From a virus (Duplodnaviria; Caudoviricetes), in IMG/VR virus record IMGVR_UViG_3300027921_000004, positions 1-24,756 of that record: 24,756 nt of DNA; one strand, written 5' to 3'. The translations under genes and the position numbers were made by a program. This document shows positions 4,085-24,756 of this stretch, piece after piece. A model generated the notes under the pieces. It did not search any database. It worked only from the letters and a program-made list of their open reading frames with translations, and was not told where the DNA came from. Every line of letters starts with the position of its first letter. Position 1 is the first letter of the stretch.

Positions 4085-5206
4085 CTAGAGACTTGCCATA
4101 GTCATGCTGGGCGCATTGACCATGCCTGAAAGGTAGTTGTTCGTCCTGGTGTTGCCGTAGGCGTTCGCCGCCGCCGTGCTGTTGCCGACACCCGCGCCGC
4201 CTCCGAGTTGCTGCAAGCGGTTCTGATAGAACTTGCTGGCAAGCGCCATGCGCTGTTCGCTGAGTTTCGCCGTCAGCGCCCCACTGTCCGTCATCCCCAT
4301 CGCCGCAGCCTGGCGCATCAATGCCTCGTCACCCTGCTTCGCCGCCGCCATATAACTCGGGTCGCTATAGATGCTGTCCGGGTTCTGCAAGAGCGCGTTG
4401 TACGCCGCCGCATCGCCGGCCCGATACTGCTGGTACGGGTCTGCCATCGCCGCCATCTTGGTCGCCTGCTTCTGGTTCTCGGCGTTCATGTACATGTTGC
4501 TGCCGGCGTTCACGAGGGTAGGAAGCAGGTTGCTCTTGCCATCCTTGCCGCCGCCAAGAAGCTGTTGCAGTAAGTTCGGGCTGGAACCGCTGGCTGCAGG
4601 CCCAACTTTCCCGAGCGTCATGCCGCCGTTGTCGTTGCCAAGCGTGGGCGTATTCCCGCCGCCAGTGATCGAATAGTCTTGTGCGCCCCATGATTCGGTA
4701 GCCGCGCCACCTTCGGCCGGAGTGCCCCAGGTCTGCGTGTTGTTGTCGAAGGTGCCGAGCGATGGCGTATTGGCACCCCATCCACTGACCTCTCCACCTC
4801 CAGCAGCGCCAGGCGTAGACCCGCCGCCCCACGAACTCATGACGTTCTTCGCGCCTGACATGACGCTGGGCATGGCCCCGCCAACAAGCGCGCCTTGCAG
4901 GATGTTCCCGCCGCTGAGCGCCGAAGTAGCCGCCCCGGTAAGCCCGCTCAGGACATTGCCGGTGTACTGTGAGCCAATACCAATCGCATCCAGCCCTGAT
5001 CCGATGCTGTCCCCGAATGCACCCCCGAGCGCGCTACCCAGTCCGGCCGATACCCCGGAGGTGAGCGCCCCTTTCCAGAAGTTGCCGCCGCTGGCTGCTG
5101 CACCCAGCCCGCCGCCGATGGCCGAGCCGATCATTGTTCCGACCATTCCGCCAATGGCCGATCCGCCAATGGATCCACCGATATACGCTAATGCGACTTG
5201 TGGCAT
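4085..5206 (-). CDS. Putative DNA ejection / pilot protein (P22 gp7-like)
   Basis: 373 aa with Gly/Ala-rich hydrophobic N-terminus. C-terminal DPSY...QGDEALMRQAAAMGMTDSGA motif resembles gp7-like transfer proteins; synteny agrees. Confidence 0.65.
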   Translation of the reverse strand: MPQVALAYIGGSIGGSAIGGMVGTMIGSAIGGGLGAAASGGNFWKGALTSGVSAGLGSALGGAFGDSIGSGLDAIGIGSQYTGNVLSGLTGAATSALSGGNILQGALVGGAMPSVMSGAKNVMSSWGGGSTPGAAGGGEVSGWGANTPSLGTFDNNTQTWGTPAEGGAATESWGAQDYSITGGGNTPTLGNDNGGMTLGKVGPAASGSSPNLLQQLLGGGKDGKSNLLPTLVNAGSNMYMNAENQKQATKMAAMADPYQQYRAGDAAAYNALLQNPDSIYSDPSYMAAAKQGDEALMRQAAAMGMTDSGALTAKLSEQRMALASKFYQNRLQQLGGGAGVGNSTAAANAYGNTRTNNYLSGMVNAPSMTMASL

Positions 5207-5664
5207 GGTGTGCCCCTTAAAATGATTCCGACTTCGATCTCATCCAGCATTGTGCCGTCCGCGTTGCGGTAACTCTCGAACCGGTAGCCCTCGACCGTCC
5301 AGCCAGTGCGTAATGCCAATGTCCGCATCATAGGCCAAGGTGAGCGCGCTTCGAGCTTGTGGTAGTAGGTATTCTCCGCTGCCCAGGCGATAGCCGCCCG
5401 TCCTGCCCGTATCGCGTCGTGAATTCCGGCGTCGTCTCCGATGAACACATCGACCGATCCCACCCAAGCCGACTTGCGCCGCAGCATGAACACCACCGGG
5501 CCATCGTGGAACAGGCAGACGTGCCCTGCTTCCACTAGCTTCGGGATGGCTTCCATGAAAGACACATCCACCCCGTCGCCGTCCTGAGATAGCCCAGGCG
5601 TGAAGCCCTGGCGCAGCACTTGCAGGCAGTCGGGTGACGGGGAGGTTTTGTAGTACGCGGTCAT
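5188..5664 (-). CDS. GNAT-fold acetyltransferase-like protein (P22 gp14-like position)
   Basis: 158 aa; C-terminal YHKLEA...LALRTGWTVEGYRFESY..DG..LDEIEVGI resembles RimJ/RimL-type GNAT; sits just before the ejection genes. Confidence 0.55.
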   Translation of the reverse strand: MTAYYKTSPSPDCLQVLRQGFTPGLSQDGDGVDVSFMEAIPKLVEAGHVCLFHDGPVVFMLRRKSAWVGSVDVFIGDDAGIHDAIRAGRAAIAWAAENTYYHKLEARSPWPMMRTLALRTGWTVEGYRFESYRNADGTMLDEIEVGIILRGTPCHKSH

Positions 5665-5721
5665 GCTGTTTCACCACTTCGGGCCGCAGCATCTAACTGC
5701 GGCCCACATTATGCGAGGCTT

Positions 5722-6165
5722 TCATAGAGGGGTGTCGAGTGCAGCCTTCGCCGCCCAGCTCGCCGCGTAGGCTGCTTGCACTTGAGCAGCAATCGCCCCT
5801 GCAATTGCCAGGAGGTCGGCAAGGCCCGTCACAGGCAGATCGCTGTTGTCGGCGTCTCGCCATACAGTGGGCAGGGGTAATCCAGCCTGCGCGAGGGTGA
5901 TGGCGGCATTTAGGAGTTGCTGGCTGCGGGCATCGGCTTGCCAGGCTCGGCCAAGCGCGGTGACGCTGGTGATACAAGTAGCATCACGCTCGCGTTCGAT
6001 AGTGGTGAGCTTCTCTTCTCTCGTGGGCGGGTCAACAGGTTCTGGTGTATTACCCTCTGCGATCCAAGAGAGGTATCTGGCGTAATCAAAGTTATCACCC
6101 GCCGCAGGAATACATGCACCGTCTGAAAGTCTGATTACCGAGGGGGTGTTAGTTAATTTGTACAT
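5722..6165 (-). CDS. Tail fibre assembly-associated protein (DUF4376-like C-terminus)
   Basis: N-terminal IRLSDGACIP...NFDY..YLSW...GNTPEP and C-terminal WQAD..SQ...WRDADN motifs; directly follows the tail fibre gene. Confidence 0.65.
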   Translation of the reverse strand: MYKLTNTPSVIRLSDGACIPAAGDNFDYARYLSWIAEGNTPEPVDPPTREEKLTTIERERDATCITSVTALGRAWQADARSQQLLNAAITLAQAGLPLPTVWRDADNSDLPVTGLADLLAIAGAIAAQVQAAYAASWAAKAALDTPL

Positions 6166-6168
6166 TGT

Positions 6169-7404
6169 TTATAGCTCCGCGTTTAACAAAAATGAACCAC
6201 TAGAAACAGCGCCGATATAAACTGCATTAGCAGTTAGTGCACTAGCAAAGCCATTCGTACTGAATTGTGCCCAGGCAGCATCTCCATAATAGTTTGTTGT
6301 TGATGCGCCAGAATAGCTTGCAGTGCCGTTTGCACAAACGATAGCGGCGCTGCATGTAACAGTTGGAGTAGTCCTCATGACTACAGGAAGTTGCATTTCT
6401 GTGGCAAAGGTGTATGCACTAGAAGCCAGGCCGGCAACAGGCCTCACCGTTTGGTAATATCGCTGGCACAACAACAACTCATACCCATAAGGCCGTTGCT
6501 CGAAGTTAGTTGTTATGGCTCCTGGCTCGTACTGCACAGCAGACAAGCTACCAACGCCAAACTCCACGGTCTGATTTGTGCCACCGACAGCCATGCCAGC
6601 CACGCCACTCGCACCGTAGGCTCCTGAGTCAACCCGGCCCTGTGCAGTGCCCGCCCACGAAAGCTTATGGGCGCCAGACAGTAGGTTCGCCCCTTCGATC
6701 ACTTGCTGTAGCGTCCCAGCCGAGATGGTTAGCGTAGTTACGTTTTCCACCATGGCAAAGGTGTAAGTGCAGCCTCCCGCGCCCGCCTTCCACCGGTCAT
6801 GCCCATATGCTCCAGCAGCGAGGATAACGCTGCCGGAAACTCCCCGTTGGTTGATCCCGAAGTTTCCATTGATGACGCGGTTTCGCATTCCGGCCACTGT
6901 CCCTGTCCCTGTCCCTGTCCCTCCTTGAGCAACAGAAAGTGGCGTGGTCAGCCCGGTCAGGCTGGTAATGTCACTGTTGGCACCCGAAGCGGCAACGCCG
7001 AGATTCGATCTTGCCCCAGATGCCGTCGCTGATCCTGTTCCACCGTTTGCAATCGCCAGTGGGGACCAGTCAGGAGGGATAGCAGCAGGAGGTGCGGCAG
7101 GCTCCTGATAGCCGGCGATGGCTGTCAGTTCAGAATTTCCTGATAGATAGATTTTGGTATCGACGTAGATATTGCCTGAGTCGTATATCTGTATTCTGTA
7201 GTGAGTTGAATTAAGTCCGTCCGCATTGTTGTGCAGCGTGATCGCAATATCTCCGCTTGCGTTTGATAATGCAGTTTCAGGCCCGGATATAACGTAGTCG
7301 CTTCCGCTAATATCGGTCGCTGATAGGTAGGCATACAGAATAGCGCCTTCTACTGGAACGCCACCAGCATCAAGTATGGTTGTTGATAGAACTGAGGTCG
7401 CCAT
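6169..7404 (-). CDS. Tail fibre / receptor-binding protein
   Basis: 411 aa; IANGGTG..TASGARSNLG and SVAQGGTG repeats, then an RNRVINGNFGINQRG...DRW...ELLLCQRYY domain typical of phage tail fibres. Confidence 0.8.
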   Translation of the reverse strand: MATSVLSTTILDAGGVPVEGAILYAYLSATDISGSDYVISGPETALSNASGDIAITLHNNADGLNSTHYRIQIYDSGNIYVDTKIYLSGNSELTAIAGYQEPAAPPAAIPPDWSPLAIANGGTGSATASGARSNLGVAASGANSDITSLTGLTTPLSVAQGGTGTGTGTVAGMRNRVINGNFGINQRGVSGSVILAAGAYGHDRWKAGAGGCTYTFAMVENVTTLTISAGTLQQVIEGANLLSGAHKLSWAGTAQGRVDSGAYGASGVAGMAVGGTNQTVEFGVGSLSAVQYEPGAITTNFEQRPYGYELLLCQRYYQTVRPVAGLASSAYTFATEMQLPVVMRTTPTVTCSAAIVCANGTASYSGASTTNYYGDAAWAQFSTNGFASALTANAVYIGAVSSGSFLLNAEL

Positions 7405-7805
7405 TACGCGCTTCCTTTTGCAAGTCCTGCGGTTATCAAAACAGTGCGAAGCGAATGGATCAACGTCGATAGCGCGCGCACATCATCGCCTAGTTCTTCG
7501 CATTTATCGCGTAACGCCTGAACTTCGGCCTGTGCGTATGCCGCGCTTATCGTCAGTCCGCCTATCTCATTATTCGTATTGCCAATGGTTACGGCTGCTT
7601 GATCCGCGCTTGCTTGCTGATTGAGCTGCGCCTTGAGTGCCGTTGTAAACGATTCGGTCGTGTTGTTCAGCACGGACATATTGGCGTGGTCGTGCGCTAC
7701 CCCGTCCGTATCCTCGATGATGTTGGCAATGGTGGTGTACCAGTCGAGCCAGGCAGGAGAATCAGGCTTTGCCCATTGCGGCGGGGGCGGTATTCTCGCG
7801 GACAT
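7404..7805 (-). CDS. Hypothetical tail-associated protein
   Basis: 133 aa; overlaps both neighbours by 1 nt; PPPP...WLDWY N-terminus and coiled-coil C-terminus; follows the gp10-like gene. Confidence 0.6.
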   Translation of the reverse strand: MSARIPPPPQWAKPDSPAWLDWYTTIANIIEDTDGVAHDHANMSVLNNTTESFTTALKAQLNQQASADQAAVTIGNTNNEIGGLTISAAYAQAEVQALRDKCEELGDDVRALSTLIHSLRTVLITAGLAKGSA

Positions 7806-9148
7806 TATCCTTGCCTCTGCATCGCCGCACCAACCACATCCATTTCCAATTCGATCAGTCGCAATGCCTCGTTATGCGTGTGCGAGAACTCGAATGCGAT
7901 GCGGCGGAAGTCTCCGAAGTTGCGGAAGCTGACGCGCGTTGCAAGCGATGCTGTGCGCGGCGTGCTCCAGGTCGCAAAGTCGTCCTTGCTGTAGCGCACC
8001 GATATGTCCCCTGCCGCACGGTCGGCCAGCACTTCCAGTTGTGGGAGGCGTTTGCGCTTTCCGGTGCCGAAGTCCACCCATGCACTGCGCGCCGTTACCG
8101 TGAAGTTCGCGCCAGCGTCCTGGTTCGTGCTGAGTTTGTAGGTCGTCCCGTCCGCCCGCTGGAAGTAGACGCTCATTCCATCCTGCACGGCGTTGACGTA
8201 GGGCCAGTAATTCCCGCTCGCGTCCTGTACCTGCCACCATCGCTTGAGCGCGATGTCGTAGGCCAGCGTGACATTGCTGGTCGGCAGGGTGAGCATGTAG
8301 AAGGCGTGCCCTGCTATCTCGAATGCCTGCGCGAAGGCGTCTGTGAGTGTGGCCCCGGAGATGATGCGCTCGATGGCTGCCGGGGATACTCGCTCAGGGG
8401 CCATGTTGTTGAGCAGGTAGACCGCGCCACCATCCGAGACGAACAACACCATGCCTTTCACGCTGGCTAGAGTTCGCGCCTGAGTGCATCCAACCTGGAC
8501 GATTGCACCGGAGACTTTCGAGAGCACCGATCCGGTCGCATTCGCCCCGTCGTAGAAGAACTCAATGGTCTTTTCGCCCATGACGCCGATGTAGTTCAGG
8601 ATGCGGAAGATCGCTACCGCGCCGTCCGAAAAGCTCTCCGCGTTGATGACGTTGAGCGCGTTCCAGGCTGTGAAGTCTCGAACGTCTGAGTGCGCAACCT
8701 GCCCTACCGAGTTGACGGTGAACAGGTAGCCATCAAGATGTACCAATCCAGCGACGTGCGCCTGGTAGTCGCCATCCGTTACCGTAGTGAGCGCCCATGC
8801 CGTACTGAGCCGGTATCCCGTCGTCCCGTTGCTGATTGCCAGATAGCGCGTGGAAGTCCCGTATTCCGCCGCCCAGCATGGCCCGGTTCCGGCAATGGCG
8901 TTGGTGCCTACCTCAGTGGTGCCGTAGAACAGTTTGGCCCCGTAGATGCTGACCAGCTGCCCGTTGAACCACCACATCCCGCGCGGGGTACTGGCAGCGG
9001 CAGGGACTTGATGCGAGGCTACGCCAGGGCGCTTGACCAGCGCCGTCCTGCCGTCTGCCAACTGTTCCGCGTAGGCATTGATGGTTATGTCGTCTTTCAG
9101 CAGCGAGGTTCCGCGCTGGCCGGGTGACTGGATGAAGGGTAGCTTCAT
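7805..9148 (-). CDS. Packaged-DNA stabilisation / tail hub protein (P22 gp10-like)
   Basis: Likely start MKLPF at 9148, since the longer ORF overlaps the upstream gene. LVKRPG, LDGYLF, AESFSDGAVA, GEKTIEFFY, GHAFYMLT.P...TLAYD...WW and SKDD..TWS motifs match gp10-like beta-propellers. Confidence 0.85.
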   Translation of the reverse strand: MKLPFIQSPGQRGTSLLKDDITINAYAEQLADGRTALVKRPGVASHQVPAAASTPRGMWWFNGQLVSIYGAKLFYGTTEVGTNAIAGTGPCWAAEYGTSTRYLAISNGTTGYRLSTAWALTTVTDGDYQAHVAGLVHLDGYLFTVNSVGQVAHSDVRDFTAWNALNVINAESFSDGAVAIFRILNYIGVMGEKTIEFFYDGANATGSVLSKVSGAIVQVGCTQARTLASVKGMVLFVSDGGAVYLLNNMAPERVSPAAIERIISGATLTDAFAQAFEIAGHAFYMLTLPTSNVTLAYDIALKRWWQVQDASGNYWPYVNAVQDGMSVYFQRADGTTYKLSTNQDAGANFTVTARSAWVDFGTGKRKRLPQLEVLADRAAGDISVRYSKDDFATWSTPRTASLATRVSFRNFGDFRRIAFEFSHTHNEALRLIELEMDVVGAAMQRQG

Positions 9149-9161
9149 GGCTTCATTGCTT

Positions 9162-9851
9162 TCATGGCATGAACCTGTCGGTGCGCCCGTCGTACTGGCC
9201 GCGATGCAGTAGCATCTGATTGACGAGTGGATACACGCGGGCATTGAACGTCGCCAGATCGGCCTTGAACTTCGCCACGACCTCCTTGGATACGCTGGGA
9301 GCCTCCACCGAATACTCGGGTGCCAACTCGATAGCCAGCGCGTGCCTGATGCCTCTGGTGTAGCCAGGCGGCAGACCGTGCGCGGTGGTAAGTCCGGAAT
9401 ACTGGCCCCACGGCTTGATGGACGTGGCCTTAATCGCGCCCACTCCACCGACTGCGTACAGCGTGCCGGTAGGCATCGTGGCATCGTAGGCCACGGCCCA
9501 GATTGTGCCAGTCACCGACTTGTCCACCAGCGCCAGGTACTCGATCATCGACAGGACTTGCAGCGGGTATTCGTAGCCGTCCACCACCCGGCGCGCCGTC
9601 GTGATGCTGATCGGCCTGGTAGTGGCGATGGTGCCGGCCGCGCCCCAGGTTGTTGCGGCTGCGGTGAGCGTGACAGCTTCGTTGGTCTCGACGTAGTTCA
9701 CCAAGCCATCCAGGGCCAGCGAGTCGATAAAGGCATTCAGGGCGTCTAGCCCCTGGTTGCGCTGCGCGGTAGTCGCCCCGCCCTCCTGGTCAATGACACC
9801 CAGCAGGCGCAGGGATGAATCAATGATGTCTTGCGCGGTGCTGAGTGCCAT
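9162..9851 (-). CDS. Head-tail adaptor / head completion protein (P22 gp4-like)
   Basis: TAQDIIDSSLRLLGVI...GLDALN N-terminus and LPPGY...ALAIELAPEY C-terminus; lies before the gp10-like gene. Confidence 0.75.
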   Translation of the reverse strand: MALSTAQDIIDSSLRLLGVIDQEGGATTAQRNQGLDALNAFIDSLALDGLVNYVETNEAVTLTAAATTWGAAGTIATTRPISITTARRVVDGYEYPLQVLSMIEYLALVDKSVTGTIWAVAYDATMPTGTLYAVGGVGAIKATSIKPWGQYSGLTTAHGLPPGYTRGIRHALAIELAPEYSVEAPSVSKEVVAKFKADLATFNARVYPLVNQMLLHRGQYDGRTDRFMP

Positions 9852-9864
9852 GAATCAACTCCTG

Positions 9865-10614
9865 TTAGTGATTCGCCCGGTAGGCTTCGCGCTGTTCCCG
9901 GCGCATCTTGCTGAATTCAGCATCACTCATAGTTTCCCATGATTTGCTACCACTCGCCGCCGTTCCGCTGGTGCGATGCGTCGGCGGAGACGGTGCCTTG
10001 GACTCGATAGCCCCAGGCTTCACACGGGATTCGAGTTTGGCAATCTCGTAGCCCTGCATACTGGGCGGCAGGTTGGCGATGCGCGCGGCTTCGTCCTTGT
10101 GCTTCCCGAGATAGTAGGCCAGATCGCCGGCTGCGTCAGAGTTCATCATGGCCTCGGCCATGCTCATGCTGATAGGCACATCCGGCGCACCAGCCACCTG
10201 CGCGAAGTCCGGGTAACGCGCGCTCGCCTCGGTGCCGATACGCTGCCATTCGTCCATGATTGCGGCGGATGCGGTCTTGTCTGCGGTGTCTGCCGTGCCG
10301 GCAGCGCGCACTGCGTCCTGCTTGTGCGTGTTGTGCTCGATCTTGGCGTCTGTGTACGCCTCAATATCGTGGTCGAATTCTTCCAGCGTCGGCGCTTTGA
10401 GCCTGGCGAGTTCGGCCTGTGCCTGTTCCGCCGCAAGACGGTACTTGTTGCGCTCGATCAGCAAGTCCTGGAAACGGTGCTGAGTGCGCGGCTTGTCGGA
10501 AATCAGCTTGTCTTCTTCCGACTTTGCGGATACCGGCTCGACCACCTCGCTTTCAGTGTCCTGCACATCGGGTTCGACGCCATCAATCCGGCCTGTATCG
10601 ACAACCTCATCCAT
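9865..10614 (-). CDS. Capsid scaffolding protein (putative)
   Basis: Start MDEVV at 10614 after AAGGAG. Acidic N-terminus, then RF..L..ER, P.LEEF....EAY, ARYPDF, LAYYLGKH..EA.RIA.L.P...EIAKLE and SKAPSP: the pattern of P22-like scaffolds. Confidence 0.75.
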   Translation of the reverse strand: MDEVVDTGRIDGVEPDVQDTESEVVEPVSAKSEEDKLISDKPRTQHRFQDLLIERNKYRLAAEQAQAELARLKAPTLEEFDHDIEAYTDAKIEHNTHKQDAVRAAGTADTADKTASAAIMDEWQRIGTEASARYPDFAQVAGAPDVPISMSMAEAMMNSDAAGDLAYYLGKHKDEAARIANLPPSMQGYEIAKLESRVKPGAIESKAPSPPTHRTSGTAASGSKSWETMSDAEFSKMRREQREAYRANH

Positions 10615-11299
10615 TTGTTTCTCCTTTGAATTCGCTACCGCCAGGCTGGCAGAGCAAGAAATCGTGTAGGCATCCCGGATAAACGGTATCGCCCGCATGA
10701 TGGTTGATGTGAAGCGTCGGAACGGTCAGTATCTCGCCTCCCAATTCCAGCCAACGACGGCAGAACGAATAGTCTTCTCCAATCCATACAAACTCATGCG
10801 CTCCGTGATTGAACAGGTCGATGGACGGCGAATAGCGATCCCCGTACAAGAGTTCAGGGTATGCGGCGATGAACCGATTGATCGCATCCTTCGTGACCTT
10901 GAGGAAACCGGCTGGTGCGGAGAAGGTGTAAATCGCCCCGTCTTTCCGGCACATCGGCGTACCGTCGGTATTCGACAGCAAGCGGCCCATGTATTCCTCT
11001 GGCTCATGCTTGAAACGATAGGTGCCGGCTACGACGTCGCCAGGCGTCTCGATAAGCGTCAGCAAATCTTGCGCGTACCATGAAACGTCATGGTCAATGA
11101 ACACAACCACATCCGCCTTGGCGTCCAGGGCTTTGCGCAGCATCGTTGCGCGTGCCGCGCTGATGTATGGGCATCCGACCTCACTTACCATGCCATGCTC
11201 AATGCCAGCAGAATCCAGATACGGAACAGATGCGGCGATGCTGGACAGCGTTTCATCGTGTGGCTTGGTGAGCGTCGGAACGCACAAAATTACTTTCAT
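10607..11299 (-). CDS. GT-A fold (family 2-like) glycosyltransferase
   Basis: Start MKVILCVPT at 11299 after GGAG. ISAAR, VVFIDHD (DxD motif), AGFLKV, GEDYSFCRRW and INHH motifs. Confidence 0.75.
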   Translation of the reverse strand: MKVILCVPTLTKPHDETLSSIAASVPYLDSAGIEHGMVSEVGCPYISAARATMLRKALDAKADVVVFIDHDVSWYAQDLLTLIETPGDVVAGTYRFKHEPEEYMGRLLSNTDGTPMCRKDGAIYTFSAPAGFLKVTKDAINRFIAAYPELLYGDRYSPSIDLFNHGAHEFVWIGEDYSFCRRWLELGGEILTVPTLHINHHAGDTVYPGCLHDFLLCQPGGSEFKGETNG

Positions 11300-11308
11300 C
11301 AATTCTCC

Positions 11309-11340
11309 AAACAAAAAGAGGGCCGTATGGCCCCCTTCTC
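11309..11340 (-). terminator. Rho-independent terminator after the capsid / small gene pair
   Basis: Minus strand reads GGGGGCC-ATAC-GGCCCTC followed by TTTTTGTTT. Confidence 0.7.
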
Positions 11341-11358
11341 GCATTGCTGACGCATCAA

Positions 11359-11592
11359 TTACGCCGTTGCCCAGATACCCAAAGCCACAAGGGTTTTCTG
11401 GATTTCATTGACAGCCGCAGCCTGGGTTGCCCCAAACGAGGCAGACGTGACGCAGCCTGCCGATGCGTGAACGGCGGAACTGTAGGCACGCTGAATGACG
11501 GGCGTAGCCCCGTAGAAACCTACCTTGTCGGCGGCAGCGTAACCAACCACTGTGCCATATGGGTTGCGTCCTGCTACTTGTTGAACGGTCAT
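11359..11592 (-). CDS. Small capsid-adjacent hypothetical protein (possible decoration protein)
   Basis: 77 aa with AAGGAG RBS; DKVGFYGATPV.Q and LVALGI motifs; lies immediately after the coat gene. Confidence 0.65.
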   Translation of the reverse strand: MTVQQVAGRNPYGTVVGYAAADKVGFYGATPVIQRAYSSAVHASAGCVTSASFGATQAAAVNEIQKTLVALGIWATA

Positions 11593-18373: not shown

Positions 18374-19606
18374 TCACGCCAGCCATCCGTGCCCGCCAAA
18401 CTGGGGGATGTCGTAGCCTGATTGCTCCTGGTGCGACGCCACGCCGCCAAGCAGTGGCTCCATCGCGTACCTGATCGCATCCCAGCAGTGGTCATTGCCC
18501 GGCTTGAGCTTGGGCAGGATGTCGCCGCTCAGTCTGTCCACCGCCCATTGCCATAGTCGAGACTCCTCCAGTGCGTGCGCACAGCGTGGGTGGATGACGA
18601 TCCCGTCGAACCCTCGCAGCAGCGCAATGCCATCCTCAATGCTGCCCGGCCCCTTTACGGCCGCATGGACGCGATACCCGCGCTTGACCATGTGCGCGAT
18701 TGTCTCGGGCCTGGCGCTGTCGGCCCGGATGACGTGCTGGCGAGAGCCTGGAACGAGATCGAACAGCCCTGGCAGCGCATCTAGATCGACCCTGTGTCCG
18801 TATGCCTCATGCTCGACATAGAGGTGGCGCGCGTGTACCCAGCATTTCACCAGCGTCGTCGGGTCCACGCTGTAGCCCCAGTCCGCGCCGTAGTACGGGC
18901 CATCCCAGTCAGAGCCTGGCGTGAAATCATCCACCACGCATTTACCAGCGAGAACCTGGGCCTCACTGTGCAGCACGCACGCGCCCTCCCAGATGTGCAG
19001 GTACGCATCCATATCGGTGCGGCGCATCTGCTCCATCTCGGCCCGCAGCACATCGGGAAACCACGGATTATCCTGCCAGTTCACGCGATGGACGATTGAG
19101 CCGGCCGGGGGATTGAGCACGAACCGCTGATAGGTGGAATCGCTCTCCATCGAAGGGTTGAACGAAATCCATATCTCAGAGTTTGGCGAGCGGATGGTGG
19201 GAATCAGAAACTTCCAGCTTTCCTCACTCACGCCCTGGGCTTCCTCCACCCAGCAGATGGATATGCCCTCAGTGGATTTGATTTCAGCGCTGTTGGCGCG
19301 CAGGCCGGCGAAAATGAACTCGCTCCCGTTGCGGCAGCGCAGGTAGTTCTGGCCCACGTCGTAATATGCCTGTAGGCCGCACATCTCGATCTGCTCTCGC
19401 AGCAATTGGAGCACGGATTGTTTGATCGAGTTTTGCAGCTCACGGCAACAGAGGATGCGGATTTTGCGCTGCATCGCCGCTATCAGGGCCAGGCGGGCGA
19501 ACACCCATGATTTGCTCGACCCGCGCCCGCCATAGGCGATTTTGTGCCGTGCTGGCGGGGAGAATTCAGCCGCCCACGGTGGTAGCTCGATGGTGCGCTC
19601 TGTCAC
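18374..19606 (-). CDS. terL: Terminase large subunit (PBSX family)
   Basis: Walker A YGGRGSSKS, Walker B CWVEEAQ, SFNP, nuclease YGADWGYSVDP, RADSARPETI and NDHCWDAIRYA. Confidence 0.95.
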   Translation of the reverse strand: MTERTIELPPWAAEFSPPARHKIAYGGRGSSKSWVFARLALIAAMQRKIRILCCRELQNSIKQSVLQLLREQIEMCGLQAYYDVGQNYLRCRNGSEFIFAGLRANSAEIKSTEGISICWVEEAQGVSEESWKFLIPTIRSPNSEIWISFNPSMESDSTYQRFVLNPPAGSIVHRVNWQDNPWFPDVLRAEMEQMRRTDMDAYLHIWEGACVLHSEAQVLAGKCVVDDFTPGSDWDGPYYGADWGYSVDPTTLVKCWVHARHLYVEHEAYGHRVDLDALPGLFDLVPGSRQHVIRADSARPETIAHMVKRGYRVHAAVKGPGSIEDGIALLRGFDGIVIHPRCAHALEESRLWQWAVDRLSGDILPKLKPGNDHCWDAIRYAMEPLLGGVASHQEQSGYDIPQFGGHGWLA

Positions 19607-19944
19607 TCCTCGATCCCGATGCTCAGGGCGTCGTGCTCGATCACCGTGCCCTGCTCCTCTGCTGCTATGTGGACAGCCCCGTAGACGATGCGCATGACAA
19701 TCTCGCCGCCGTCTGCCCCGCTCATCTCAACCTGCTGGCGAGGCTTGCCGTCGAGTACATCGCGCAGCATCTCGCAGGCCCAGCGCTCGCCGCCTGCCGC
19801 CAGGTCCATCACGGAGTTAACCGCCATTACGATCCGCTGCCGCTCGCTCGGTAGGGTCTTTGCCTCGCGCTCAATGAGTGCGCGGATGTGCGACTCCCAC
19901 AACTGAGATTTCCCACCTGCTCTATTGCCTAGTGCGAAGGCCAT
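19603..19944 (-). CDS. terS: Terminase small subunit (putative)
   Basis: 113 aa, GTGA overlap with terL; N-terminal F..GN..G and C-terminal LDGKPRQQVEMSGADGG motifs. Confidence 0.65.
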   Translation of the reverse strand: MAFALGNRAGGKSQLWESHIRALIEREAKTLPSERQRIVMAVNSVMDLAAGGERWACEMLRDVLDGKPRQQVEMSGADGGEIVMRIVYGAVHIAAEEQGTVIEHDALSIGIEE

Positions 19945-19959
19945 AATATGCGGTCATGT

Positions 19960-20008
19960 ATAAGCTTTTGGTTATGCAACCATAGCACAACCATAACCAA
20001 AAGCTTAT
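19960..20008. repeat. Perfect 17-bp inverted repeat upstream of terS
   Basis: ATAAGCTTTTGGTTATG (19960-19976) and CATAACCAAAAGCTTAT (19992-20008), with a 15-nt spacer. Confidence 0.9.
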
Positions 20009-20070
20009 GGTTTATGTCCAATATCCTGGCTACGGGTCAAGATTACACGTCAGATGGGGGCGATCATGCG

Positions 20071-20619
20071 TTATGCACCACGGTTCAATAACCTGTATTT
20101 GGTGTCAGTGTCGCCCTCAACCCAAACCGTCCAATGCACCTCCATTGTTGGCGCTCCGCCACGCTCTCCGCCCATGAAATCAGGCCGCCAAGTCAATGGC
20201 AGCACATAAGCGGGCGGAAACTCCTTGAACAGCAACGAGCGTTTTTTCGCGTGCCAGTATTGGGATTTTAAAACCATTGCCACCGTCCCAGCCTGAGTCA
20301 GCGCATGGCGTATGAATTCCTCGCTCACATTGAATGGGGGATTGGTAATAACTGCGTCATAGTCGGCACTCGTTTCGAGAAAATCAATTCCGCCATTCCC
20401 GTAACCAGTGTGGCGAATATCGCTTGATACAACGTCGTGTCCGTACTGTTTCAGAACTTCCGCCATCGCTCCATTACCGCAAGCTGGCTCCAAAATTAAG
20501 CAGGGTTTCAATTCCAGAAAACGCATGAGTGCGTGTGTTACATCTGGCGGCGTTGGGTAGAAATCCAAGTCGCGCCGTTTGTTGTCCGTACTGCTGTTTG
20601 CTAAATTAAGTGCTTTCAT
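20071..20619 (-). CDS. Cassette 1: DNA amino-methyltransferase (N6-A/N4-C type)
   Basis: DFYPTP, motif I ILEPACGNG, motif IV VITNPPF. The stop TAA lies within GTTATGC at 20070-20076. Confidence 0.85.
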   Translation of the reverse strand: MKALNLANSSTDNKRRDLDFYPTPPDVTHALMRFLELKPCLILEPACGNGAMAEVLKQYGHDVVSSDIRHTGYGNGGIDFLETSADYDAVITNPPFNVSEEFIRHALTQAGTVAMVLKSQYWHAKKRSLLFKEFPPAYVLPLTWRPDFMGGERGGAPTMEVHWTVWVEGDTDTKYRLLNRGA

Positions 20620-20641
20620 TCCACATCCTTAAAGTTGCCAC

Positions 20642-20705
20642 GCATAACACTGCGCTCAAAAAGGACAAGCCAAAACCCGGCTTGCCTTTTAGCTAGGCGT
20701 TAGGC
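20642..20705 (+). repeat. attC site 1 (64 bp)
   Basis: GCATAAC-ACTGC-GCTCAAAA...TTTTAGC-TAGGC-GTTAGGC. Confidence 0.9.
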
Positions 20706-21047
20706 ATCATGCAGCAGCACTGCACGCGCCATTTCAATATCCCGCGCCTTCGGCTTTATGCACCGGATCACGCGGGCCTTTTCACACTGCCACGAAAGCC
20801 CCGGCATAGAGCAATCCGGGTCTGGCTCAACCTCACCGAGCGGTTCGCACTCGTAAATTACGCCGTTCTTGACGCCTGCCGCGTACAGCAGCGCCGCCGC
20901 TTGGCTCGTGGTCACATAAACTCTATCGCGCCTATGCACATCAGCCGCCCCATATTCCGAGAGCGAGGGCGCTTTCGTTACTGTCGGCGGCAATATGTAC
21001 GCTCCACGCTGGATACCGCGCCGACCGCCGTGCCAGTAAGTCGTCAT
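20700..21047 (-). CDS. Cassette 2: Arr-like ADP-ribosyltransferase-fold protein
   Basis: YWHGG, RVYVTT, VIYECEPLGEVEPDPD and SW parallel the Arr motifs FYHGT / IYFT / IYIVEPTG..EDDP / SY. Confidence 0.6.
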   Translation of the reverse strand: MTTYWHGGRRGIQRGAYILPPTVTKAPSLSEYGAADVHRRDRVYVTTSQAAALLYAAGVKNGVIYECEPLGEVEPDPDCSMPGLSWQCEKARVIRCIKPKARDIEMARAVLLHDA

Positions 21048-21058
21048 CTCGTCTCCAT

Positions 21059-21124
21059 GCCTAACACGGCGCTCAAGCGGGACCGGGCAAACTGCCGCCC
21101 GGCCCCTTAGCTTCAGCGTTATGC
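21059..21124 (+). repeat. attC site 2 (66 bp)
   Basis: GCCTAAC-ACGGC-GCTCAAGC...CCTTAGC-TTCAGC-GTTATGC. Confidence 0.9.
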
Positions 21125-21316
21125 GTCTTCATAGCACGGCTCAGTCACGAAAGCCGGGACATCGACCGCACGAACTTCGTCAATCGAGTACAACGGCGAT
21201 GGCCCTGTCGCGTAGTGGCTTTTCGTCACTTCATACAACACGCCGTCGCAGCGAATAAACCGCGCCTTTTGTTTCTCGGCTTGGCGTTTCAGGTAGTACC
21301 ATTTTTCGTCTGTCAT
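21119..21316 (-). CDS. Cassette 3: hypothetical protein
   Basis: Likely start MTDEK at 21316 after AAAGGA; stop lies in the R' box. Confidence 0.65.
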   Translation of the reverse strand: MTDEKWYYLKRQAEKQKARFIRCDGVLYEVTKSHYATGPSPLYSIDEVRAVDVPAFVTEPCYEDA

Positions 21317-21338
21317 TTCGCGTCCTTTCATCAAATAC

Positions 21339-21402
21339 GCATAACCCGTCGTTCCAGCGGACTGGCGATAATGCCGCCAGCCGCTGAACTCAGGCGTTAT
21401 GC
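21339..21402 (+). repeat. attC site 3 (64 bp)
   Basis: GCATAAC-CCGTC-GTTCCAGC...GCTGAAC-TCAGGC-GTTATGC. Confidence 0.9.
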
Positions 21403-21693
21403 CGCTTCATACGTCGCCTCGAAAATGTCAGGCTTGCACGGGTACAGTTCGCCCTTCACGCCCTGGATGATCCAGTCGCCCCACGAAACGAGGTGCTGCC
21501 CTTCGAGCGTGCCAATCGAAAGCGTTCCGTCGCCCGTGCCTTCTTCGGTCGGGTACAGCGAGCCGGGCGCTTCGCGGTCAAGCTGCCAGGCGCGGTGCAT
21601 CCAGTTCGGCCAATCGGCATTGCTGGCGCGGCGCTCTTCGGTCATCTGGAACGCCTCGATCACTACGGGCTTCTTGCGAAATTTCAGGTTCAT
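21397..21693 (-). CDS. Cassette 4: conserved phage protein (PGDYG-like)
   Basis: Start MNLKF after GGAG. RKKPVVIEA...TLEG...GDWIIQGVKGELYPCKPDIFEATYE is a widespread phage accessory family. Confidence 0.8.
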   Translation of the reverse strand: MNLKFRKKPVVIEAFQMTEERRASNADWPNWMHRAWQLDREAPGSLYPTEEGTGDGTLSIGTLEGQHLVSWGDWIIQGVKGELYPCKPDIFEATYEAA

Positions 21694-21727
21694 TTTGTTC
21701 TCCAAAACCGCGCTTCGTGGGTAGGCG

Positions 21728-21803
21728 GCATAACCCGTCAATCAACACGGACGCCTGCCGGCGATAAAGCCGCCGTCAGTCGCCGATTATTTCTGCGTTG
21801 GGC
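21728..21803 (+). repeat. attC site 4 (76 bp)
   Basis: GCATAAC-CCGTC-AATCAACA...GATTATT-TCTGC-GTTGGGC. Confidence 0.85.
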
Positions 21804-22021
21804 GCATCAATTGCAGCATCAATCAGAGCGAGAGTTTCGTCATCCCATGAACGCAAAACTAGAGATTTCCTCGCCTCTATCATGGCCACCTGTAGCGCCT
21901 CGCGTTTCCGCCGTTCATCGTGCCAGCGATCGTAGAATTCAGCGTGTTCCCGCTCCAGAACTTTCATCCGGTCTTCCATTTCTATTAACCGGCAAGCATC
22001 AGTACATGGGTGCAATGGCAT
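21776..22021 (-). CDS. Cassette 5: hypothetical coiled-coil protein
   Basis: 81 aa after GGAAGGA; the C-terminus PNAEIIGD is encoded inside attC4. Confidence 0.6.
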   Translation of the reverse strand: MPLHPCTDACRLIEMEDRMKVLEREHAEFYDRWHDERRKREALQVAMIEARKSLVLRSWDDETLALIDAAIDAPNAEIIGD

Positions 22022-22043
22022 TTCATTTTCCTTCCGTTATATC

Positions 22044-22110
22044 GCCCAACAGGCGCTTCAACGCGGACGGGCGAAAATGCCCGCCCGCCGGTTAAGCTTT
22101 GGCGTTGGGC
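22044..22110 (+). repeat. attC site 5 (67 bp)
   Basis: GCCCAAC-AGGCG-CTTCAACG...GGTTAAG-CTTTGGC-GTTGGGC. Confidence 0.88.
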
Positions 22111-22114
22111 GTCA

Positions 22115-22342
22115 TCATTCATGCGCCTTTCGTTCGATTCCGACCTTCTTGACAATCAGAGACAGCATTTCCAATGTCGCCGCCGCGTCTTCCTGGTTCA
22201 CCGGCATTGTCACCTGCATTCGGCCTTTCATTGTCGCTGCGCTCTCCTTTCTGATCTGGCGTTCCGCCCACAACTGACCCCACCCGAAACCAGCAAACAA
22301 GAGCACTCCGATAGTAATTACTGCCGTGAAAATTTCTTCCAT
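22115..22342 (-). CDS. Cassette 6: small membrane-anchored hypothetical protein
   Basis: 75 aa; N-terminal hydrophobic helix; AAAGGA RBS. Confidence 0.65.
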   Translation of the reverse strand: MEEIFTAVITIGVLLFAGFGWGQLWAERQIRKESAATMKGRMQVTMPVNQEDAAATLEMLSLIVKKVGIERKAHE

Positions 22343-22366
22343 TTCAGTATCCTTTCAAGTTGTCAT

Positions 22367-22455
22367 CGCTAACAAGCGCTTCGAGCGGACCGGCGAACAT
22401 GCCGCCTCACTCCGATCCACCGCCGCGCGCCGGCCGCTCATGGCTGGCGTTAGAA
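22367..22455 (+). repeat. attC site 6 (89 bp)
   Basis: CGCTAAC-AAGCG-CTTCGAGC-GGACCGGCG...CGCCGGCC-GCTCATG-GCTGGC-GTTAGAA. Confidence 0.8.
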
Positions 22456-22512
22456 CCCAAGCCGTGGAGTCCCGTTACCGGGGCTCCAGAGTTTGGCTTC
22501 TTGGCGGGGGCG

Positions 22513-22668
22513 TCAGTATCCAGAAACACCAACGTCCCCGGTGCATATCAGCGGCCCGATAGGGCGCGGCATACGCGGCTCAGTATCGGCGTCGGCACGC
22601 TCTTGATCCACCATAGGTTCTGGCCAGTGGTAGCTGAGGGCCAAGCCGATCAACAAAACAATCAGCAT
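22513..22668 (-). CDS. Cassette 7: small protein (51 aa) with hydrophobic N-terminus
   Basis: Below the ORF-track cutoff. AGGAG RBS, then MLIVLLIGLALSYHWPEPMVDQERADADTEPRMPRPIGPLICTGDVGVSGY. Confidence 0.5.
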   Translation of the reverse strand: MLIVLLIGLALSYHWPEPMVDQERADADTEPRMPRPIGPLICTGDVGVSGY

Positions 22669-22683
22669 CTTCTGTGTCTCCTG

Positions 22684-22753
22684 TTCTAACTAACGCTTCA
22701 ACCCGGACGCTGCGCATAAAGGCCGCGCCGCGCCGGTTAAGCTGGCGTTATGC
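22684..22753 (+). repeat. attC site 7 (70 bp)
   Basis: TTCTAAC-TAACG-CTTCAACC...GGTTAAG-CTGGC-GTTATGC. Confidence 0.88.
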
Positions 22754-22932
22754 CGCGTGCAATTATCCACATCATGAATAACAACGGTCATTCCAAATGG
22801 GTCAAAAACCTGACATCCGCACACTGGGCACGTTTTTGGCTGCCTGGCGACGAACTTAGTAATCTGCTCGTCATCGTCGGGAATGCCACATTTTTTGCTG
22901 CACCTGGCTTTCGTGTACTCAACAAAATCCAT
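22690..22932 (-). CDS. Cassette 8: Cys-rich (CPVCG zinc-ribbon-like) hypothetical protein
   Basis: Likely start MDFVE after AAAGGA; reads through almost all of attC7 before stopping. Confidence 0.6.
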   Translation of the reverse strand: MDFVEYTKARCSKKCGIPDDDEQITKFVARQPKTCPVCGCQVFDPFGMTVVIHDVDNCTRHNASLTGAARPLCAASGLKR

Positions 22933-22952
22933 TTCATTTCCTTTGTTGTCAC

Positions 22953-23043
22953 GCATAACTGGCGGGTCAAGCGGGACGCCCGGCCGGCGTGGTTTGGTCT
23001 TTGCCGGCGTGGTGCCGGGCGCCCCTTACCCTAAACGTTATGC
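22953..23043 (+). repeat. attC site 8 (91 bp)
   Basis: GCATAAC-TGGCG-GGTCAAGC...CCTTACC-CTAAAC-GTTATGC. Confidence 0.88.
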
Positions 23044-23286
23044 GTCGTCTTCATTGCATATGTCGGTTTTTGGTCTTGATGTCATCCAGGCAATTATCTC
23101 ATCTTGCCGCCACATCACGCTTTTAGCTCCCCATCGCATTGGTTTCGGGAACTCTGGATCATAACGAGAATGTTCAGGGTTAATCATTTCGTAAATCTTG
23201 CTCCTGCTTATTCTTAATGCACCTTCAACCTCTACGCGCGTCATGATTAAGAATGGCGGATCGAATACAATTTTCACAGGTTTCAC
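23038..23286 (-). CDS. alpA: Cassette 9: AlpA-family phage regulator / recombination-directionality-factor-like HTH protein
   Basis: EVE..L.ISRSKIYEMINP....YDPEFPKPMRWGAKSVMWRQDEIIAWM is the AlpA pattern. Confidence 0.85.
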   Translation of the reverse strand: MKPVKIVFDPPFLIMTRVEVEGALRISRSKIYEMINPEHSRYDPEFPKPMRWGAKSVMWRQDEIIAWMTSRPKTDICNEDDA

Positions 23287-23308
23287 GTCTATATCCTTAT
23301 GTTGTCAT

Positions 23309-23400
23309 GCATAACGGGCGGTTCAAGCGGAGCGCGCGAAATGCCGGTTCACTTCGTGGTTAGCGCCTCGCGCGCGCCCGTTTAACCCAAGACGTTAGGG
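23309..23400 (+). repeat. attC site 9 (92 bp)
   Basis: GCATAAC-GGGCG-GTTCAAGC...GTTTAAC-CCAAGAC-GTTAGGG. Confidence 0.88.
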
Positions 23401-23651
23401 GCTTCCGGAAGCGGCATCCAAAACACAAAATAGTGCAATTCTTGACCCGAGACAGCATCACAAAACCCGCCTATAAAATCTCTCCAGTAAACCACCGCCA
23501 TCCCGGTTTCGTCTCCATTATCGGCATACCCGAGAAATACTTTCCCATCTTTCGGCGCGGTTTCAATTGGAAGCCATGCCCCTAACCCGGCGCTCAACGC
23601 GGACGCTGCGCCGTCAAGCTCTTCAACCTTCATCACTTCTTCCACGTTCAT
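23382..23651 (-). CDS. Cassette 10: DUF551-like phage protein
   Basis: WLPIETAPKDG...WMPLPEAP. Starts inside attC10 and ends inside attC9. Confidence 0.8.
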   Translation of the reverse strand: MNVEEVMKVEELDGAASALSAGLGAWLPIETAPKDGKVFLGYADNGDETGMAVVYWRDFIGGFCDAVSGQELHYFVFWMPLPEAPNVLG

Positions 23652-23701
23652 CTCTCCTTCAATCGTCGGCGCGCGCAGCGCCTGTTAGCTGGGCGTTAGC
23701 C
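23580..23701 (+). repeat. attC site 10 (122 bp; long loop carries an RBS and ATG on the minus strand)
   Basis: CCCTAAC-CCGGC-GCTCAACG-CGGACGCTGCGC...GCGCAGCGCC-TGTTAGC-TGGGC-GTTAGCC. Confidence 0.85.
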
Positions 23702-23874
23702 GCCACCTTCGCGGCCTTCTCGCGGCGTTTCAGCAACTTTGCCGCCAGCGCCTTGATAGCCACCCAGTCTTCCGGGTGGGCGTAGATTTCCAGGCGTTTC
23801 AGGCCAAGAGCGGCGGCCCGCTCTCGCAGGGCCGCTACCCGAGCACTGACGGATTTCGGATCATTCCGGGTCAA
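23659..23874 (-). CDS. Cassette 11 ORF c: small basic putative DNA-binding (ribbon-helix-helix/antitoxin-like) protein
   Basis: Likely TTG start after GGAG. RVAALRERAAALGLKRLEIYAHPEDW..IK; the tail is encoded in attC10. Confidence 0.55.
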   Translation of the reverse strand: MTRNDPKSVSARVAALRERAAALGLKRLEIYAHPEDWVAIKALAAKLLKRREKAAKVAANAQLTGAARADD

Positions 23875-24046
23875 TCCAGTCTCCAGGAACGTGCTCGATG
23901 AAGAAATTCTCATCCACCTGCACACCCATGTGGCGCGCAGTATTGATACGCTGGTGCATCTCTGTTTCGCAGTCCGTACTGTTGTCAGACACGAACACGC
24001 AAACTCCATCCTGAGAAATTAATTTGTAATTCGATGGTGAGTACAT
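23861..24046 (-). CDS. Cassette 11 ORF b: hypothetical protein
   Basis: 61 aa; TAATG overlap with the upstream ORF. Confidence 0.55.
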   Translation of the reverse strand: MYSPSNYKLISQDGVCVFVSDNSTDCETEMHQRINTARHMGVQVDENFFIEHVPGDWIDPE

Positions 24047-24321
24047 TATGTGAACTCCCGGATAATGAAATGTTTTGCATCACTTTCGATGCGTTCGATA
24101 TCCTCAAACAACTCACTATCCGCAGTCAGTGTGACCATTCCATCCTCTGTTGCAGTTGCCTCGACATACCGAGAGCGTGTGTCAGCAACCGCACTGCGCG
24201 CCAGGTCGATGAAAACCTGAAAATACCCGTGCGCGCCTTTACTCAGCGGCCCCTCACAAGCTGCGACAGCGAATTCCATCTCTTTTCTTAGGTCGATGGT
24301 GACGGTGCGTTTTTCTGTCAT
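24046..24321 (-). CDS. Cassette 11 ORF a: acidic hypothetical protein
   Basis: 91 aa; AGGAG RBS; directly downstream of the predicted promoter. Confidence 0.7.
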   Translation of the reverse strand: MTEKRTVTIDLRKEMEFAVAACEGPLSKGAHGYFQVFIDLARSAVADTRSRYVEATATEDGMVTLTADSELFEDIERIESDAKHFIIREFT

Positions 24322-24353
24322 TTCGTGCTCCTGGTTGGTTGCGGTACGGTTCT

Positions 24354-24382
24354 AATATAGCAAACCGTTTCCGGTAACGCAA
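24354..24382 (-). promoter_or_regulatory. Sigma70-type promoter inside cassette 11 with an overlapping near-palindromic operator
   Basis: Minus strand TTGCGT-17 nt-TATATT with TG extension and an A/T-rich upstream tract; GTTACCGGAAAC overlaps the -35 and spacer. Confidence 0.6.
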
Positions 24383-24419
24383 GGGCTTGAGAAGATATAT
24401 TTTTTGTCACGGCTGTCAC

Positions 24420-24488
24420 GGCTAACTCGTCGTTCCAGGCGACCGGGCGGATAAAGCCCCGCCCGCCGCCTGAACTGTTGCGTTAGGC
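24420..24488 (+). repeat. attC site 11 (69 bp)
   Basis: GGCTAAC-TCGTC-GTTCCAGG...CCTGAAC-TGTTGC-GTTAGGC. Confidence 0.9.
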
Positions 24489-24755
24489 ACCAAGTGCCGC
24501 CAGTTCTTCGCACAGTTTTGCTTTCCGCTGCTCTATCCACTCTTGGTCAATCTCGACGGCCATTCCTGCCGAGGCTTCGGCTACGTTGCAGGCGTCAATC
24601 CAGCCTTGCGCCTCTCTGCAATTTATGGAGCCTCCAGCATTCATAGAAACATGATCTCCAATCTCGAAAGTCCCGTCTACGCTGGCCTTGGTGACGATGT
24701 ACCGCTTACCCACCGCCATGCCTAACACGTCGCTCAACCCGGACGCTGCGCCGGC
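24483..24755 (-). CDS. Cassette 12: hypothetical protein (start uncertain; frame open to the window edge)
   Basis: ...AGAASGLSDVLGMAVGKRYIVTK...; stop lies in the R' box of attC11. Confidence 0.65.
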   Translation of the reverse strand, partial: AGAASGLSDVLGMAVGKRYIVTKASVDGTFEIGDHVSMNAGGSINCREAQGWIDACNVAEASAGMAVEIDQEWIEQRKAKLCEELAALGA

Positions 24756-24756
24756 A
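24720..24756 (+). repeat. attC site 12 (left half only, truncated by the window)
   Basis: GCCTAAC-ACGTC-GCTCAACC-CGGACGCTGCGCCG, closely similar to the left arm of attC10. Confidence 0.8.

Follow-up and report, generated by a model that had tools for sequence, protein, structure and literature searches.

In integrons, the direction of a cassette gene relative to its attC recombination site counts as a fixed rule; the origin of cassettes is unsolved. How, then, does a phage come to carry an array in which every gene points the other way? The virus record IMGVR_UViG_3300027921_000004 (Duplodnaviria; Caudoviricetes) raises this question. The whole record is 24,756 bases long, and the stretch analysed here, the window, covers all of it. 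The minus strand of its left 19.9 kb encodes a P22-like virion module, with Pfam and PHROGs matches to terminase, portal, coat, scaffold, head closure and tail fibre. From 20070 to the contig end runs an array of 12 hairpin (attC) sites between 14 small minus-strand open reading frames (ORFs) in 12 cassettes. A first-pass annotation of this DNA had claimed that all 14 ORFs read away from their own attC and form a distinct class of reverse cassettes. Our analysis makes it probable that this is a phage-borne cassette array of small phage genes, each with an attC hairpin before its start codon, which probably owe their expression to the early transcript and are probably moved through cut-and-paste at G/TT (the slash marks the crossover) by an integron integrase (IntI) of host or phage.

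Polarity of the attC sites and the cassette genes

The left arm of each site consists of a 7-nt core ending in AAC (R''), 5 nt and an 8-nt box (L'') with an unpaired fourth base. All 12 octamers that had been reported 5 nt after R'' are present; the right-hand spacer, however, varies from 5 to 7 nt. Without position 4, the octamer pairs with L' at 5-7 of 7 positions, and the mirrored reading is worse at all 11 complete sites, which form hairpins with R''/R' and L''/L' arms, AAC/GTT core ends and an extrahelical L'' base. Because extrahelical bases lie near L'' (Nivina 2016, PMC5027507; statements on cited papers refer throughout to their accessible text), the plus strand is the top strand, as first proposed. 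A strict scan of 20001-24756 yields 10 plus-polarity and 0 minus-polarity matches (shuffle mean 0.3 each), and eight of the 10 are curated sites.

A covariance model (CM) leads to the same strand call. It was built from 26 of the 37 bacterial attC sites of our genome scan and from no phage sites; the training sites were oriented by the site scanner, whose orientation agreed with gene direction at most of those loci and with the position of intI in the one complete host integron. The model recovers exactly the 11 complete sites, all on the plus strand opposite the ORFs (E 1e-12 to 8e-5), and nothing further in the 24.7 kb. Folding of both strands, which the first-pass annotation had suggested alongside the strand comparison, finds the minus (bottom) strand more stable at nine of 11 sites, by a mean of -1.5 kcal/mol.

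The sites, all with plus as top strand, are attC 1 (20642..20705, CM score 46.9 bits), attC 2 (21059..21124, 54.0 bits), attC 3 (21339..21402, 58.7 bits; fold z -5.2, its minus strand folding with an extrahelical G and T), attC 4 (21728..21803, 36.5 bits), attC 5 (22044..22110, 33.4 bits; 7-nt right spacer), attC 6 (22367..22455, 28.9 bits), attC 7 (22684..22753, 33.7 bits), attC 8 (22953..23043, 37.7 bits), attC 9 (23309..23400, 26.9 bits), attC 10 (23580..23701, 35.3 bits) and attC 11 (24420..24488, 45.0 bits). attC 12 (24720..24756) is a left arm, recognised by its anatomy and cut by the contig end. On the minus strand, the loop of attC 6 (22367-22455) holds a ribosome-site-like motif and an ATG that opens a short peptide, which ends next to where the cassette 6 gene starts; translational coupling through this hairpin is possible.

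That all 14 ORFs lie on the minus strand is upheld, with support that is uneven among them. Family matches are found for five of the 14, and for none of 17 plus-strand ORFs searched against PHROGs at E<=0.05, so the bottom strand carries every supported ORF, and none reads along the top strand towards its own attC as in a standard cassette. The five are a DNA methyltransferase in cassette 1 (20071..20619; phrog_799, E 7e-56), whose stop is the TTA of the core site; an Arr-like ADP-ribosyltransferase fold in cassette 2 (20700..21047), weakly matched to Pfam Arr-ms (E 1e-4, below the cut-off) and to phrog_17296 at E 2e-28; a member of phrog_419, the 'PGDYG' protein of many phages, in cassette 4 (21397..21741, E 4e-30; start likely near 21693), which has phage homologues without attC sites; an AlpA-family regulator or excisionase in cassette 9 (23038..23286; PF05930, E 7e-10), of which a search of metagenome contigs found no close relative; and a weak DUF551-like match in cassette 10 (23382..23651; PF04448, E 0.017, below the cut-off; phrog_924, E 0.002). 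A composition classifier calls eight of nine window intervals reverse and one, cassette 8, ambiguous. Six of the 12 cassettes stop on the TTA of a G/TTA core. Four ORFs extend into the following attC, and in cassette 10 the gene has its ribosome site and start codon within the loop of its own attC 10. Against three full-length homologues of the cassette 2 gene, 45 of 53, 41 of 53 and 42 of 57 mismatches fall at third positions of the minus frame, and protein identity is 91-95% in that frame versus 59-65% in the open plus frame. These comparisons indicate that the gene is under purifying selection in the minus frame.

The remaining ORFs, likewise on the minus strand, come from the ORF list. Those of cassette 3 (21119..21334) and cassette 11 (23659..24321; three ORFs at 23659-24009, 23861-24046 and 24046-24321) are without family matches. 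No function is assigned to cassette 5 (21776..22021), which reads into attC 4; to cassette 6 (22115..22342), the only cassette with mismatched core sites (4/7); to cassette 7 (22513..22668, 51 aa; also called by composition); to cassette 8 (22690..22956), which reads through attC 7; or to cassette 12 (24483..24737, start likely 24719). A predicted promoter-like site found by eye on the minus strand at 24352..24382 (TTGCGT, 17 nt, TATATT with TG) faces the cassette 11 genes; a consensus promoter scan makes no call there and lists a different site at 24419-24392. Promoter and terminator counts across the array are not above those of shuffles, and the consensus scan lists zero plus-strand promoter-like sites in 19850-24756, and hence no Pc such as a complete integron would have.

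Movement, heads and integrases

The 12 same-polarity sites stand at cassette spacing and their cores are paired: R'' perfectly complements the core at the opposite end of the cassette in 11 of 12 cases, against a permutation mean of 2.8, and 0 of 100000 permutations reach this value. Four other viral contigs carry cassette 2, at 82-85% DNA identity. Homology in three of them runs from G/TT to R'' between different neighbours, and one contig has the cassette directly behind a head, as the first of its array. More widely, 245 cassettes gave 17 homologous pairs, and nine of the 10 pairs with differing flanks conserve the attC on the start-codon side; among the discordant pairs at >=99% identity, all four keep it unchanged. 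The moving unit is therefore an attC plus a reversed gene, cut at G/TT. The evidence for such movement is comparative, from cassette 2 and from four first cassettes at one attI, described below.

Several further observations concern these cassettes. The Arr-like fold (20700-21047) appears as a mobile cassette in five phages and seems to be under purifying selection; another contig encodes a 38% homologue of the cassette 2 gene without an attC. In locus L467 the start side of the Arr-like ORF has, in place of the attC, a short site resembling a head and made up of a core remnant, 6 nt and GTT, which suggests that heads and truncated attC sites can interconvert. One array (L331) holds the same cassette at 3021 and 7102, a 100% duplicate with different left neighbours. 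A read joint skipping 23041-23305 (run X1) was rejected as a cassette excision, given its 26-letter side, a depth unlike that of the phage and a position not on G/TT.

Is the window an isolated case? The first-pass annotation had called for a survey of viral contigs, and the distinct class it proposed is borne out. Our survey pattern was the left arm, which carries no gene-direction bias, and covered 124 of about 230 viral stretches, 44 of which were limited to about 600 bases, and 130 of about 3300 genome stretches; counts exclude a first viral pattern biased by an anti-ribosome-site motif. Loci that overlap were counted once, on the basis of sequence; a site may have been missed within an interval, and both sets contributed to the training of the site profile. 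ORF length alone was rejected as a strand caller after it misclassified GC-rich cassettes, and a composition score was used instead. Among 125 intervals at 46 viral loci, 114 are reverse, one forward and 10 ambiguous. The 70 intervals at 18 loci in bacterial genomes comprise 32 forward, 19 reverse and 19 ambiguous, and 12 of those 19 reverse intervals belong to one contig of a Propionivibrio bin that is phage-like, with a phage lysozyme and methyltransferases.

When both viral scans are pooled, the biased pattern included, 87 of 200 reversed viral ORFs stop on a core and 41 start within an attC. PHROGs matches were obtained for nine of 40 reversed ORFs sampled from 184 (five methyltransferases, Mom, Lar, phrog_419 and one of unknown function) and for three of 32 forward bacterial ORFs. 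In complete genomes the arrays either stand before terS or come last in the early operon, where the preceding genes are bet/exo/ssb, dnaB/ninB/erf, ninB or rdgC. In one complete phage (G025; loci L403 and L404) two reversed arrays run with opposite polarity, each in keeping with the direction of the genes around it.

Insertion points resembling attI occur at the heads of many of these arrays. A bare head core matching the first R'' is present in 34 of 47 arrays. In a set of 40 heads, which still includes a few missed attC arms, CTA stands at -9/-10 in 21 (background 1.3%) and an upstream GTTA in 12 (background 0.7%), motifs that we take to resemble the L box and direct repeat of attI1. The window head (20058..20076, plus strand) is a bare G/TTATGC core with a weak attI-like L box and the crossover between 20070 and 20071; the core is a perfect complement of the first R'', and no attC body lies to its left. 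It adjoins terS rather than intI, and no integron integrase is found among the ORFs of the window, in which the contig ends within the array.

IntI was found in one of 45 array-bearing viral records, and in none of the nine at >=90% completeness. The one record (G004) is a full integron: its 10 attC sites and reversed genes are joined to a head resembling attI and to an intact IntI that scores 446 bits (cut-off 265). Its intI is read in the same direction as the phage operon and diverges from the attC top strand, which is the standard geometry. With this IntI protein as query we found 54 viral loci. Among the best IntI records, 16 of 17 pass the integron-integrase cut-off, eight of them nearly complete genomes. 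Four related phages have in common intI and about 105 bases, then diverge exactly at G/TT into four different reversed first cassettes. These near-identical phages (L415, L416, L417 and L418) thus swap cassettes at the attI position, and three of the four first cassettes are methyltransferase-like. Reversed cassettes also stand upstream of intI in L413, L417 and L427, with L428 alike by eye and L412 cut. The first-pass annotation missed these whole intI-attI platforms, which offer a reason for the reversal.

A second layout occurs in L420, L422, L424, L426 and phage Rctr41k (KX853513), where the intI stop is closely followed by G/TT and the cassettes downstream are forward, as in inverted-integrase integrons. 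Where phages encode a true IntI within the early operon, arrays before intI are reversed and arrays after it are forward; gene direction therefore follows the phage transcript and not attC. The same five loci have 7-nt right spacers, and the integron of Rctr41k spans 4680-10100 of KX853513 with its integrase annotated only as xerD.

Two observations fit an integrase acting in trans. The Propionivibrio bin carries an ordinary forward integron with IntI besides its reversed phage-like array, and in the sequencing run with this phage, sites like attC 8 and attC 9 occur on contigs at thousands-fold depth, versus about 6-9 for the phage. Next to one such site the sequence can be read as a forward gene that ends in R''. 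Both are compatible with this proposal, though bins may be mixed and the contigs are not assigned to an organism. No plasmid match was obtained for attC 8 or attC 9.

Explanations for the reversal

We propose that IntI would fold and recombine the minus (bottom) strand, here also the coding strand, and that new cassettes would enter at the head beside terS. Early leftward phage transcription would then express them, in line with the expectation of the first-pass annotation. This is suggested by their co-orientation with terS and, in complete relatives, with early replication and recombination genes. When a standard intI-attI unit sits in a phage operon with intI in sense, attI would point against the transcript. 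Reversal may follow because attI faces against the operon transcript, so that only reversed genes would be expressed. The phage of the window would have lost, or never had, an intI beside its head and would rely on IntI in trans. Many host integrases are under SOS control (PMC10500605), which would tie cassette shuffling to prophage induction.

Several results sit uneasily with this account and lower our confidence in it. The head of the window is a poor attI match, with an L-box score of 2.2 that 1.3% of 150 background sites reach and without CTA, and it could instead be a secondary GWT site. A recombinase may lie further right, beyond the contig end. Nine of the 14 window ORFs have no family support. 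In the copies of cassette 2 at 82-85% identity the attC body is conserved on neither side (52-55%), and other more diverged pairs likewise keep neither body; attC bodies thus appear also to be exchanged over time by a route outside the simple G/TT model. The integrase tree leaves its base open, does not separate the two layouts as clades and shows no single origin of either layout. Finally, only one of 80 terminase relatives has >=2 attC sites, with the same polarity as the window, and carriage is therefore patchy.

The strongest alternative, which we consider unlikely, is that reversal was selected for its effect on recombination rate: if genes were co-oriented with the replication fork, the bottom strand of attC would lie on the lagging-strand template and there fold and recombine more often. 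That placement raises recombination, and large chromosomal arrays avoid the orientation that produces it (PMC5371416); arrays in complete phages also follow replication and recombination genes. However, inverted-integrase phages and TJE1 keep forward cassettes in the same kind of operon. A lagging-strand benefit is compatible with expression from the phage transcript as the reason for reversal, and the two could act together.

It is very improbable that a different, phage-encoded recombinase cuts the other arm, on the top strand, and that the reversal is an effect of naming. The differing attC bodies beside diverged copies of one gene speak for such an enzyme, and the far end of the window array, where it might show, is missing. 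Near-identical cassettes nevertheless keep the start-side attC, the head is a bare G/TT, phage IntIs pass the cut-off in 16 of 17 records, and arrays diverge at G/TT. Least probable of all is that the phage captured a now defunct fragment of a host integron, or that forward host cassettes had their genes flipped between inverted core sites: the sites are of bacterial type by the covariance model, similar ones abound in the same sample, and captured chromosomal integron pieces have been reported in Vibrio and Shewanella phages (Qi et al. 2023, PMC9892861), but the cargo is of phage type (methyltransferases, Mom, Lar, phrog_419, AlpA) with homologues in phages without attC, reading frames are under purifying selection, and a plain flip would not yield the 41 of 200 reversed ORFs that start within an attC.

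Reversed cassettes would be silent in a host integron, as the first-pass annotation had predicted. This follows from the geometry of Pc and is probably not universal, since cassette 11 has a predicted promoter-like site facing its own genes. A broader reading, which we put forward tentatively and hold at somewhat less than even, is that phages make their own accessory genes into cassettes, with an attC hairpin set at the start codon and a core site at the stop, and that phage lineages trade them by means of host or phage IntI through an attI at the end of the early operon. Direction would be set at birth by the transcript, and the resulting pool would be mirror-imaged and unreadable in standard host integrons.

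A large and consistently mirrored phage pool would imply that the direction rule stems from expression, not chemistry. It would also constrain models of cassette origin, as one and the same hairpin could attach before or behind a gene and the stop codon would in both cases fall on a core site. For phages, cassettes that carry methyltransferases and other counter-defence genes would be a site-specific way to build mosaic accessory regions, which are usually ascribed to illegitimate recombination, and metagenome cassette surveys would include phage genes read on the wrong strand. If such a phage integron economy exists, phages would be a place to watch and test the origin of cassettes.

Setting of the array and comparison with known integrons

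Directly downstream of the array in the sense of transcription lie a putative terS and terL (18374..19944, minus strand), the start of the P22-like virion module. The module is recognised by Terminase_3, P22 portal and P22 coat matches, and terS is called by position only; no relatives of the putative terS were found in a search of viral contigs. Between terS and the array head is a perfect 17-bp inverted repeat (19960-20008, fold z -5.7), the arms of which carry a GTTATG/CATAAC core-like pair. Inverted repeats just outside the core are also found at several other phage heads, and that of the window is possibly an operator or terminator at the early/late boundary. Rfam gives zero matches in 19500-24756. 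Between the scaffold and coat genes of the head module lies a glycosyltransferase-like gene (10607-11344; phrog_1574, function assigned by eye only) and, beside it, a small gene at 11359-11592.

Like standard integrons (PMC5027507, PMC5371416), the array has R''-L''-loop-L'-R' hairpins with extrahelical bases near L'', paired cores and G/TT crossovers, and stop codons are often located in a core site. It differs in having its genes on the bottom strand and attC before the start codon, so that expression cannot come from Pc. The stop overlaps R', not R'' as in standard integrons, in 87 of the 200 reversed viral ORFs and in six of the 12 window cassettes. Occasional reverse cassettes with their own promoters, such as toxin-antitoxin pairs, also exist in ordinary integrons. 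Those are exceptions within forward arrays, whereas here whole arrays are reversed.

Inverted-integrase integrons have intI and attC on one strand (PMC13323075). In these the integrase is flipped and the genes remain forward relative to attC; in the window the genes are flipped relative to attC, and no intI was found in a contig that ends within the array. Wrong-way insertion through the top strand (Nivina 2016, PMC5027507) also places genes facing Pc, but there gene and attC flip together and polarity still follows the gene. IntI can also insert cassettes at attG, short GWT sites outside attI (10.1101/2022.09.11.507474). The accessible text of that work is silent on gene direction; many other phage heads are attI-like, and the weak head of the window could be an attG site.

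The closest precedent is the report by Qi, Rajabal, Ghaly, Tetu and Gillings (2023, PMC9892861) of 17 CALINs and three complete integrons in phages, whose attC sites are recombined by IntI1 with a bottom-strand preference. Their phage CALINs are integrase-less attC clusters with methyltransferase cargo, and the array of the window resembles them, with a methyltransferase and no intI found up to the contig end. TJE1, one of their examples, is forward, unlike the window array. The accessible text does not describe genes reversed relative to attC, although its figures or annotation may include reversed arrays without comment. Reversed phage arrays are likewise not described in the literature we searched, which included PMC8618304, 10.64898/2026.03.17.712381 and 10.1101/2022.09.11.507474 and mostly excluded subscription journals. 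Clusters of attC in phages were thus already known (PMC9892861); what appears new is a widespread, mirrored form of integron, and the proposed reason for its direction can be tested.

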